Numbered from the stretch's first letter, positions 17,131 through 17,268 are shown. The stretch is 41,145 nt of DNA from a virus (IMGVR_UViG_2531839440_000003:1-41145); one strand, 5' to 3'. Numbers and translations: made by a program. The notes: generated from the sequence alone by a model not told the origin.

Positions 17131-17268
17131 CATATCCGCGCCACGCCCGGCGCACATCAAAAAACCACAGAGCCTTTCAGGGGTGAGCTTACGGGATGGT
17201 CAGTGTGACTTTCTCTGTGGGCTGGTCACCCCCGGGCGCAGGCTCACCCACTAAAAGGAAAAGTCACG

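Follow-up and report, generated by a model that had tools for sequence, protein, structure and literature searches.

We interpret positions 17138–17268 of the window, the 41,145-nucleotide stretch of viral DNA analysed here, as the structured leader of an mRNA, acting in cis to gate the initiation of translation; the estimated probability is about 0.6. The leader belongs to a known kind of RNA, the cis-acting translational leader, within which it forms a new family. It is longer and more complex than first described, and far more widely distributed. Comparison of about 75 distinct leaders, collected by pattern scans of metagenomes and viral contigs, indicates that it is very probably an RNA structure maintained by selection. 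Occlusion of the Shine–Dalgarno sequence (SD) is, on the same sequence comparisons, probably its working principle. There is also a real chance that the family is something more unusual than a translational leader.

The window is a lambda-like Escherichia coli prophage; the chromosome of strain FDAARGOS_1077 matches it with 100% identity over the query. Its genes run in the order rusA, a DUF1133 protein occupying the place of the antiterminator Q, a small regulator, a DNA methyltransferase (15745–16794), three tRNA genes (16844–17093), a terminator-like hairpin with a T-run, the leader, tciA, tciB, a terminator-like site (17893–17908), the holins and an M15 endolysin. The tciA–tciB cargo is flanked by the tRNAs and the holin genes, the place occupied by Shiga-toxin genes on the maps of Stx phages; its position varies among related prophages. 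The tciA gene of phage P1 shares 80% nucleotide identity with that of the window, and the region upstream of it in P1 is unrelated to the leader, so the P1 literature is uninformative on the leader.

Table 1 Features of the leader and of the adjoining cargo operon (A2, alignment of 26 sequences described in the text).
Feature	Position	Strand	Evidence
Intrinsic terminator AGGCTCGC-TTCG-GCGGGCCT followed by T5, after the third tRNA and directly upstream of the leader	17107–17131	+	Terminator scan
5' hairpin H0, stem GCGCC/GGCGC, loop ACGCCC	17138–17153	+	99% paired on A2
H0 loop bases CGCCC, long-range pairing with GGGCG (17234–17238) in the internal loop	17144–17148	+	Covariation
A-rich single-stranded linker ACATCAAAAA, length variable	17154–17163	+	Alignments; unpaired in every predicted fold
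Helix A, 5' arm ACCACAGAG, pairs with 17213–17221, abuts the anti-SD without a linker	17164–17172	+	Covariation
Anti-Shine–Dalgarno CCUUU, pairs with AAAGG (17254–17258)	17173–17177	+	99–100% paired
Helix C, 5' arm AGGGGUGAGCU, includes GGGTGAGC, pairs with 17241–17252	17179–17189	+	RNAalifold, covariation
Helix N, 5' arm GGG.UGGUCAGU, pairs with 17221–17231	17193–17204	+	Covariation
Apical loop, with invariant GUGAC (17205–17209) and the helix A 3' arm CUCUGUGGG (17213–17221)	17205–17221	+	Alignment, covariation
Helix N, 3' arm GCUGGUCA.CCC	17221–17231	+	Covariation
Asymmetric internal loop, 3' strand CCGGGCGCA; 17234–17238 pairs with the H0 loop	17232–17240	+	Covariation
Helix C, 3' arm GGCUCACCCACU, includes GCTCACCC	17241–17252	+	RNAalifold, covariation
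Ribosome-binding site AAAAGGAAAAG; AAAGG (17254–17258) paired to the anti-SD in the conserved fold	17253–17263	+	RNAalifold, covariation
tciA, TerB-domain protein, 141 aa, cargo gene behind the leader	17269–17694	+	ORF list; Pfam TerB PF05099
tciB, DUF3927 small membrane protein, overlaps the tciA stop codon	17691–17843	+	ORF list, domain search
Terminator-like hairpin and T-run between tciB and the holin genes	17893–17916	+	Terminator scan

The core of the leader is a long hairpin with a lower stem of approximately 16 bp, an internal loop of 3 × 9 nucleotides and an upper stem of 11 bp. In its lower part, CCUUU and GGGGUGAGCU pair with GGCUCACCC and the SD, AAAGG. The subtypes are named E (that of the window), O, K, X, V, W and Y, and substitutions among them preserve the pairing. 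Helix C changes from A-U to G-C at 17179:17252 in O157-type copies and from U-G to C-G at 17189:17241, and in Enterobacter phage CobraSix its GGG:CCC becomes AAG:CUU; changes in the anti-SD:SD helix are limited to C to U opposite G. In helix N, the pair 17202:17223 passes from A-U through G-U to G-C, several G-U pairs become G-C or U-A, and subtypes V and W carry matched 1-nucleotide deletions on both strands. A small alternative hairpin (17196–17202 with 17206–17212), which excludes helix N, also shows covariation, at 17197:17211.

Two long-range pairings cross this hairpin. Helix A joins the segment preceding the anti-SD to the apical loop; its pair 17167:17218 occurs as A-U, G-U, G-C and U-A, 17166:17219 as C-G or U-A, and 17170:17215 as G-C or A-U. 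Across subtypes the two arms read CCACAGAG/CUCUGUGG, CCUGCAGAG/UUCUGCAGG, CCUCAGAG/CUCUGAGG, CCGCAGA/UCUGCGG, CCACAA/UUGUGG, CGAGAG/CUCUCG and GAAAGU/ACUUUC, and in CobraSix and the divergent type-2 leaders the entire arm is replaced with complementarity kept. In a matrix of matched and mismatched duplexes, the cognate duplex was the most stable in five of seven subtypes. The second pairing joins the H0 loop to the internal loop and comprises 5–6 bp in all nine subtypes (9/9), always with the strand just 5' of GGCUC as partner. Five versions of it occur (CGCCC/GGGCG, CGCUC/GAGCG, GUGCC/GGCAC, UCUCAC/GUGAGA and UCGCAC/GUGCGA), and the pair 17147:17235 changes from C-G to U-A. The H0 stem itself has three compensatory variants, GCACC/GGUGC, GCGUC/GACGC and ACGCC/GGCGU. 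From the sequences we infer that both long-range pairings form in the same molecule as the long hairpin, the alternative being that they belong to a separate conformer.

The initial annotation had described a leader of about 110 nucleotides with nested inverted repeats that end just before the ribosome-binding site. The repeats it quoted are present (GGGTGAGC at 17181–17188, GCTCACCC at 17242–17249, GTGAC at 17205–17209 and GTCAC at 17225–17229), as is the purine-rich ribosome-binding site AAAAGGAAAAG at 17253–17263 ahead of the tciA ATG at 17269. A repeat search extends GGGTGAGC/GCTCACCC to arms of 13 nucleotides (17181–17193 and 17237–17249, 85% complementary) and adds the perfect inverted repeats CCACAGAG (17165–17172) with CTCTGTGG (17213–17220), GGGGTGA (17180–17186) with TCACCCC (17226–17232), and CGCCCGG (17144–17150) with CCGGGCG (17232–17238). 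Against 2,000 dinucleotide shuffles of 17160–17268, perfect inverted repeats are in excess at six nucleotides (12 observed versus 1.7 expected), seven (7 versus 0.4) and eight (3 versus 0.12, P = 0.0065). The folding energy of the single sequence is modestly unusual (z = –1.8 for 17160–17280 and –2.25 for 17138–17271). Several of these repeats are mutually exclusive or cross one another, so a single-sequence fold is unable to choose between them.

That choice was made on homologues. Three models were compared on A2, for which 26 balanced sequences were aligned with MAFFT without fitting them to a structure. With the long hairpin, helix A and the loop pairing combined, 95.8% of cells are paired, versus 40–49% with slid partners. 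The same combined model has 33 double-change cells versus 12.1 ± 2.8 in shuffles (0/500) and a covariation score of 0.169 versus 0.130 (0/500); the shuffle test ignores relatedness, so that '0/500' is not a probability. The minimum free energy (MFE) hairpin of the window's own sequence is 91.9% paired on A2, with one double-change cell and covariation like that of the shuffles (94/500). The stem model of the initial annotation shows no covariation on A2, and its inner stem is broken in most lineages. Compensatory events were also counted by hand and stem from few lineages, about seven to nine subtypes. On an alignment fitted to the covariance model, double changes in helix C are inflated, some of them spuriously because of a 1-nucleotide register shift in subtype Y, and the counts from that alignment are not relied on for helix C.

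Folding and covariation across homologues thus bear out a conserved RNA structure on the + strand, of which the first description captured a part. The outer repeat GGGTGAGC/GCTCACCC lies in the RNAalifold consensus helix. The inner GTGAC/GTCAC stem is not conserved: two of its five pairs are unpaired in 15/26 and 9/26 cells, and it shows no covariation. The inner helix that does covary is UGGUCAGU/GCUGGUCA, offset from it. The element is structured as proposed, and larger, beginning at 17138 and including two pseudoknot-type long-range pairings. Nor does the structure stop short of the ribosome-binding site, the core of which is itself paired in the conserved fold.

The pattern of change also bears on whether the conserved segment acts as DNA, as a recombination boundary or linker between phage modules, or as a protein-binding or promoter site, with the pairings incidental. 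Mosaic junctions at both ends would suit such an element, as conservation runs from H0 or just before it to the SD or about 30 nucleotides into tciA, and so would the occurrence of the leader at several insertion sites in different phages. We nevertheless consider it very unlikely: four helices show compensatory changes in each of their arms, the arms stay complementary even where their sequence has been exchanged, and no match to a sigma-70 promoter is present. Model pairs contain 98 G-U cells versus 17 A-C cells, an excess that points to RNA on the + strand. Patterns of this kind are expected of RNA and not of a recombination linker or a DNA-binding site. The leader also evolves far more slowly than the synonymous sites of the neighbouring gene, with 79–83% identity between E. 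coli and Klebsiella-type copies, where the third positions of neighbouring tciA that are synonymous reach only 54–59%. Neutral decay is roughly illustrated by the copy adjacent to hypT in E. coli 504211 (L102, 2501–2627), from which TerB is deleted and in which the start codon reads ATA instead of ATG and both the SD and helix C are lost. Remnants of this hypT type, consisting of the leader and the DUF3927 gene flanked by IS elements, occur in about 280 E. coli genomes at 60–80% identity.

The SD-paired hairpin is the MFE fold in subtypes K, X, V, W and Y, in CobraSix and in type-2 (z from –2.4 to –4.6), and the RNAalifold consensus is the same hairpin. In the conserved fold the SD is paired to an upstream segment in a helix continuous with helix C, as in SD-sequestering leaders. 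The initial annotation had proposed a stem-loop able to occlude or expose the ribosome-binding site; occlusion agrees with the anti-SD:SD pairing of the conserved fold, which is the MFE in five of seven subtypes, and is at odds with the window's own MFE, which leaves the SD free (–54.6 kcal/mol versus –51.7 kcal/mol for the closed fold). In the E and O157 (O) subtypes the SD-free hairpin is favoured by 2.9–3.1 kcal/mol in an energy model without pseudoknots, which omits both the H0 loop pairing and helix A, worth –12 kcal/mol as a duplex on its own. In every subtype the SD-paired and SD-free folds lie 1.5–4.3 kcal/mol apart. The window's MFE hairpin (GAGCC:GGCUC, GGGGUGA:UCACCCC and GCUUACGG:CUGUGGGC) was rejected as the conserved fold, as it lacks covariation and its middle helix is not kept in the V subtype. 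The SD helix of the window copy consists of five weak pairs, so that repression could be small.

We propose that the folded RNA would hide the SD and so limit translation of tciA–tciB on any transcript that reads into the leader. A simple consensus scan, which weak or activator-dependent promoters could escape, found no sigma-70-like promoter in 17090–17268 or in three homologous loci, and inspection by eye revealed no sigma-54 or sigma-E promoter and no internal promoter that would bypass the anti-SD. As no promoter is detectable in the leader, the transcript would be supplied by read-through or by antiterminated late transcription through the tRNAs and the terminator. Because the 5' arm of helix A abuts the anti-SD without a linker, helix A, once formed, would stack on the SD helix, which is weak and A/U-rich, and hold that helix closed; loss of helix A, or formation of the hairpin 17196–17212, would loosen it. 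Together, the two long-range pairings would make the RNA compact. Candidate modes of opening are slow breathing, which would amount to constitutive attenuation, a co-transcriptional kinetic window, processing by RNase III, and a ligand or protein factor.

Hairpins of differing sequence with a T-run occupy the same place ahead of the leader elsewhere, about 25 E-subtype loci have no upstream terminator, and a T-run precedes H0 in 85 of 115 type-2 copies. In Klebsiella phage 1 LV-2017 the leader directly follows Q, a pR'-like promoter and a terminator at the tR' position. In several related loci the terminator that follows the third tRNA of the window has a second copy, placed about 620 bp ahead of the leader; an unannotated insert lies in between. 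Many E. coli prophages (L008, 2452–3000, and others) have approximately 570–680 bp free of annotated genes between the tRNAs and the leader, with terminator-like hairpins on both strands. The terminator region of the window (17095–17137) has a weak similarity (E = 0.07) to STnc100, a prophage sRNA, at the 3' end of the latter. The first tRNA (16844–16919) is called Met (CAT) by ARAGORN, and the identical gene is tRNA-Ile in RefSeq; the latter would mean the lysidine-modified ileX/ileZ type, typical of Stx-like phages.

Helix N and the hairpin 17196–17212 are mutually exclusive and both show some covariation, so the static picture may in fact be a switch. The apical-loop GUGAC is complementary to GUCAC at 17263–17267, beside the start codon, and both sequences are invariant; together with the competing hairpin, this complementarity hints at alternative states. 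Such features raise the possibility that the leader is a sensor, riboswitch-like or protein-bound, in which the double long-range fold would form a binding pocket that decides the SD helix in response to a small molecule, an ion, a phage or host protein, the ribosome or RNA polymerase. The arrangement has the look of an aptamer with an expression platform: there is a junction or internal loop, two tertiary pairings covary, and the closing helix contains the SD. Among the unpaired positions, many do not vary from subtype to subtype (such as UGUGAC in the apical loop and the GUCAC before the AUG), covariation is found in both of the exclusive helices, and the SD-paired and SD-free folds are close in energy throughout. 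We rate this as rather unlikely, given that the downstream genes are functionally unrelated, in a manner unlike those of metabolite riboswitches, and that Rfam riboswitch and ribozyme models find no match even at E < 10. Two covarying long-range pairings and an SD helix are present; the different inner domain of type-2 makes a single shared ligand pocket doubtful. It is a speculative proposition that these leaders constitute a new class of RNA sensor, either riboswitch-like or perhaps catalytic, whose double-pseudoknot fold would respond to the state of the host or phage and so time the translation of the cargo genes.

A leader of this shape could also be a substrate for processing. A lower stem, an asymmetric internal loop and an upper stem are the general shape of T7-type RNase III signals, and the long hairpin could accordingly be a phage-type RNase III processing or stability signal that cuts cargo mRNA from read-through or late transcripts, with cleavage perhaps freeing the ribosome-binding site from the anti-SD and H0 serving as a protective 5' hairpin. 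The coaxial duplex with its internal loop, with the stem dimensions given above, is compatible with this, and the element lies between transcription units, right after tRNAs or terminators, in polycistronic late operons. Processing sites, though, need neither two covarying long-range pairings nor an exact anti-SD:SD match conserved in every subtype, and the 16-bp G+C-rich lower stem would stay together after one cut in the loop. We judge processing as the main role to be distinctly improbable, and translational gating by SD occlusion remains the preferred reading.

Other identities were tried and rejected. Transcription attenuation or termination was dismissed, as the terminator scan finds only the separate upstream hairpin (17107–17126) and the leader hairpin is followed by ACUAAAAGG, without a U-run. 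An RNA thermometer of the fourU or ROSE type does not fit a U-rich anti-SD continuous with a G+C-rich helix of 9–11 bp, with a core duplex of –14.7 kcal/mol and whole-leader folds of –45 to –57 kcal/mol. A small open reading frame at 17196–17336 (46 aa) has an ATG that is not conserved and is interrupted by indels of 1–5 nucleotides between subtypes. CsrA sites, judged by eye, lack the upstream GGA in three subtypes. Identity with the Pas, EcOnc or STnc100 RNAs was also discarded: the coordinates of PasA and PasD2 place them downstream of DUF3927 and nanS-p genes, and the E2348/69 locus that encodes both has no similarity to the leader.

The Rfam scan suggested at the outset returned no family for the leader. 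At gathering thresholds, Rfam 15 finds only sok and the three tRNAs in the window, and permissive scans of 17090–17320 and of the HK639 copy yield only chance-level matches (E ≥ 0.025), mostly to the upstream terminator. The sok match itself is strong (RF01794, 120 bits; 11957–12132, + strand) and marks a hok/sok-type toxin–antitoxin in the early region of the prophage. No published description of the leader was found in the literature searched, the coverage of which is incomplete, so that this is absence of evidence only.

Copies of the leader are found in prophages of E. coli, Klebsiella, Enterobacter and Citrobacter, and on sequence comparison it is a portable family ahead of cargo ('moron') genes of lambda-like prophages. 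Among 5,426 complete E. coli genomes, 1,230 carry the window's subfamily, and the median copy number is two. A covariance model of the long hairpin has a single hit in the window; elsewhere it finds L014, a divergent leader of a TerB gene, and, in phage CharmingMan, a second and very divergent copy ahead of a different operon. The latter represents the type-2 leader, which is more than 90% conserved in phi80, HK639, mEp043/213/237/390, Fraca, Salmonella FSL SP-016 and others, and whose inner domain differs from that of the window's subfamily. Type-2 leaders are found behind the lysis genes, at the right end of the genome, or among the tail genes, and their similarity stops at the SD; in phi80, HK639, the mEp phages and viral contigs they precede at least seven unrelated protein clusters. 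Representative type-2 loci are L004 5126–5239, L345 2501–2614 (phi80), L344 2501–2622 (HK639) and L346 2501–2620 (Fraca). In the HK639 annotation, only the terminator upstream of the type-2 leader is marked.

The first description had tied the leader to the TerB gene, and this association does not hold: the leader is not TerB-specific and precedes unrelated genes. Together with tciA it occurs in many different settings. In O157-type prophages the leader is about 88% identical and the TerB proteins are only 43% identical, with homology ending about 30 nucleotides into the gene. Klebsiella loci retain the leader and the DUF3927 gene but have a 281-aa secreted TAXI/NMT1-like protein in place of TerB. 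CobraSix carries an intermediate form of the leader ahead of a Rha-family gene. Altogether, the genes behind the leaders encode TerB, TAXI-like binding, Rha, HNH, tail-tip-domain and glycosyltransferase-like proteins. Cargo swaps within fixed flanks are seen at L104 2501–3621 (Klebsiella variicola plasmid NZ_CP103421) and in metagenome loci L110–L221. A type-2 cargo reading frame of 357 aa on a viral contig (L459) combines the type-2-associated N-terminal segment with JAB/MPN and NlpC/P60 domains, like tail protein K, and may be a read-through artefact of naive translation or a real fusion. Near-identical E. coli-type tciA loci are filed under Actinobacillus phage vB_Apl-pPE4, a Bacillota MAG, Pseudomonas lundensis and Kocuria sabuli (H1, PP818812.1; L011, L015 and L021); these records are probably contamination or mis-binning and not true hosts.

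Expression of accessory ('moron') genes is usually explained by promoters of their own. Here, a shared mobile RNA leader that would bury the ribosome-binding site precedes unrelated cargo at three insertion sites, one behind Q and the tRNAs, one behind the lysis genes and one among the tail genes, in phi80, HK639, the mEp series, O157-type prophages and Klebsiella phages. If the fold controls translation, it would set the dose or timing of many conversion genes and would be a ready-made natural 'expression cassette'. Should the leader sense something, it would constitute a new class of regulatory RNA in very well-studied organisms, a shared RNA switch for the lysogenic-conversion and accessory genes of many lambda-like phages.

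Among known systems, some riboswitch platforms control the ribosome-binding site through a pseudoknot or kissing loop, as in the L5–L13 interaction of the cobalamin riboswitch and the preQ1 and SAM-II pseudoknots. As in these, a hairpin loop of the leader is predicted to pair over a long range beside the ribosome-binding-site helix, and the pseudoknot and access to the SD would be physically linked; unlike these, the leader has no Rfam match and heterogeneous gene associations. With T7-type RNase III signals it shares the two-stem hairpin, the asymmetric internal loop and the position between cistrons directly upstream of a ribosome-binding site. It differs from them in that the ribosome-binding site lies inside the lower stem and that extra tertiary pairings are conserved.

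A promoter of its own is part of the definition of a lambdoid phage moron (Juhala et al. 2000, summarised in PMC3594210). As with morons, the leader fronts 'extra' late-operon genes flanked by terminators, with a downstream terminator and an insertion between conserved phage genes; unlike them, it has no detectable promoter, and an intrinsic terminator usually lies immediately upstream. Pathogenic E. coli also encode the prophage sRNAs PasA/C/D, EcOnc and STnc100, and the conserved neighbours reported for PasA/PasC include genes for TerB and DUF3927 (PMC8550237, PMC4104026, bioRxiv 10.64898/2026.05.13.724894). The Pas/EcOnc sRNAs lie downstream of cargo genes and have their own terminators, whereas the leader lies upstream of the cargo; prophage PP2 of E2348/69, which encodes PasA and PasD2, carries no leader copy.

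The closest parallels are phage leaders that sequester the SD, such as the MS2 maturation-gene leader, the early transcripts of T4 e and soc, the alternative folds of lambda cIII and the 'sdi' stem of lambda S. In these, as proposed here, a structure in the 5' untranslated region pairs the SD region and sets the amount or timing of translation in cis, with no dedicated protein required. The present leader differs from them in that no internal promoter or processing event bypassing the anti-SD was found, in that two extra long-range pairings covary, and in that it is a mobile cassette common to unrelated genes.
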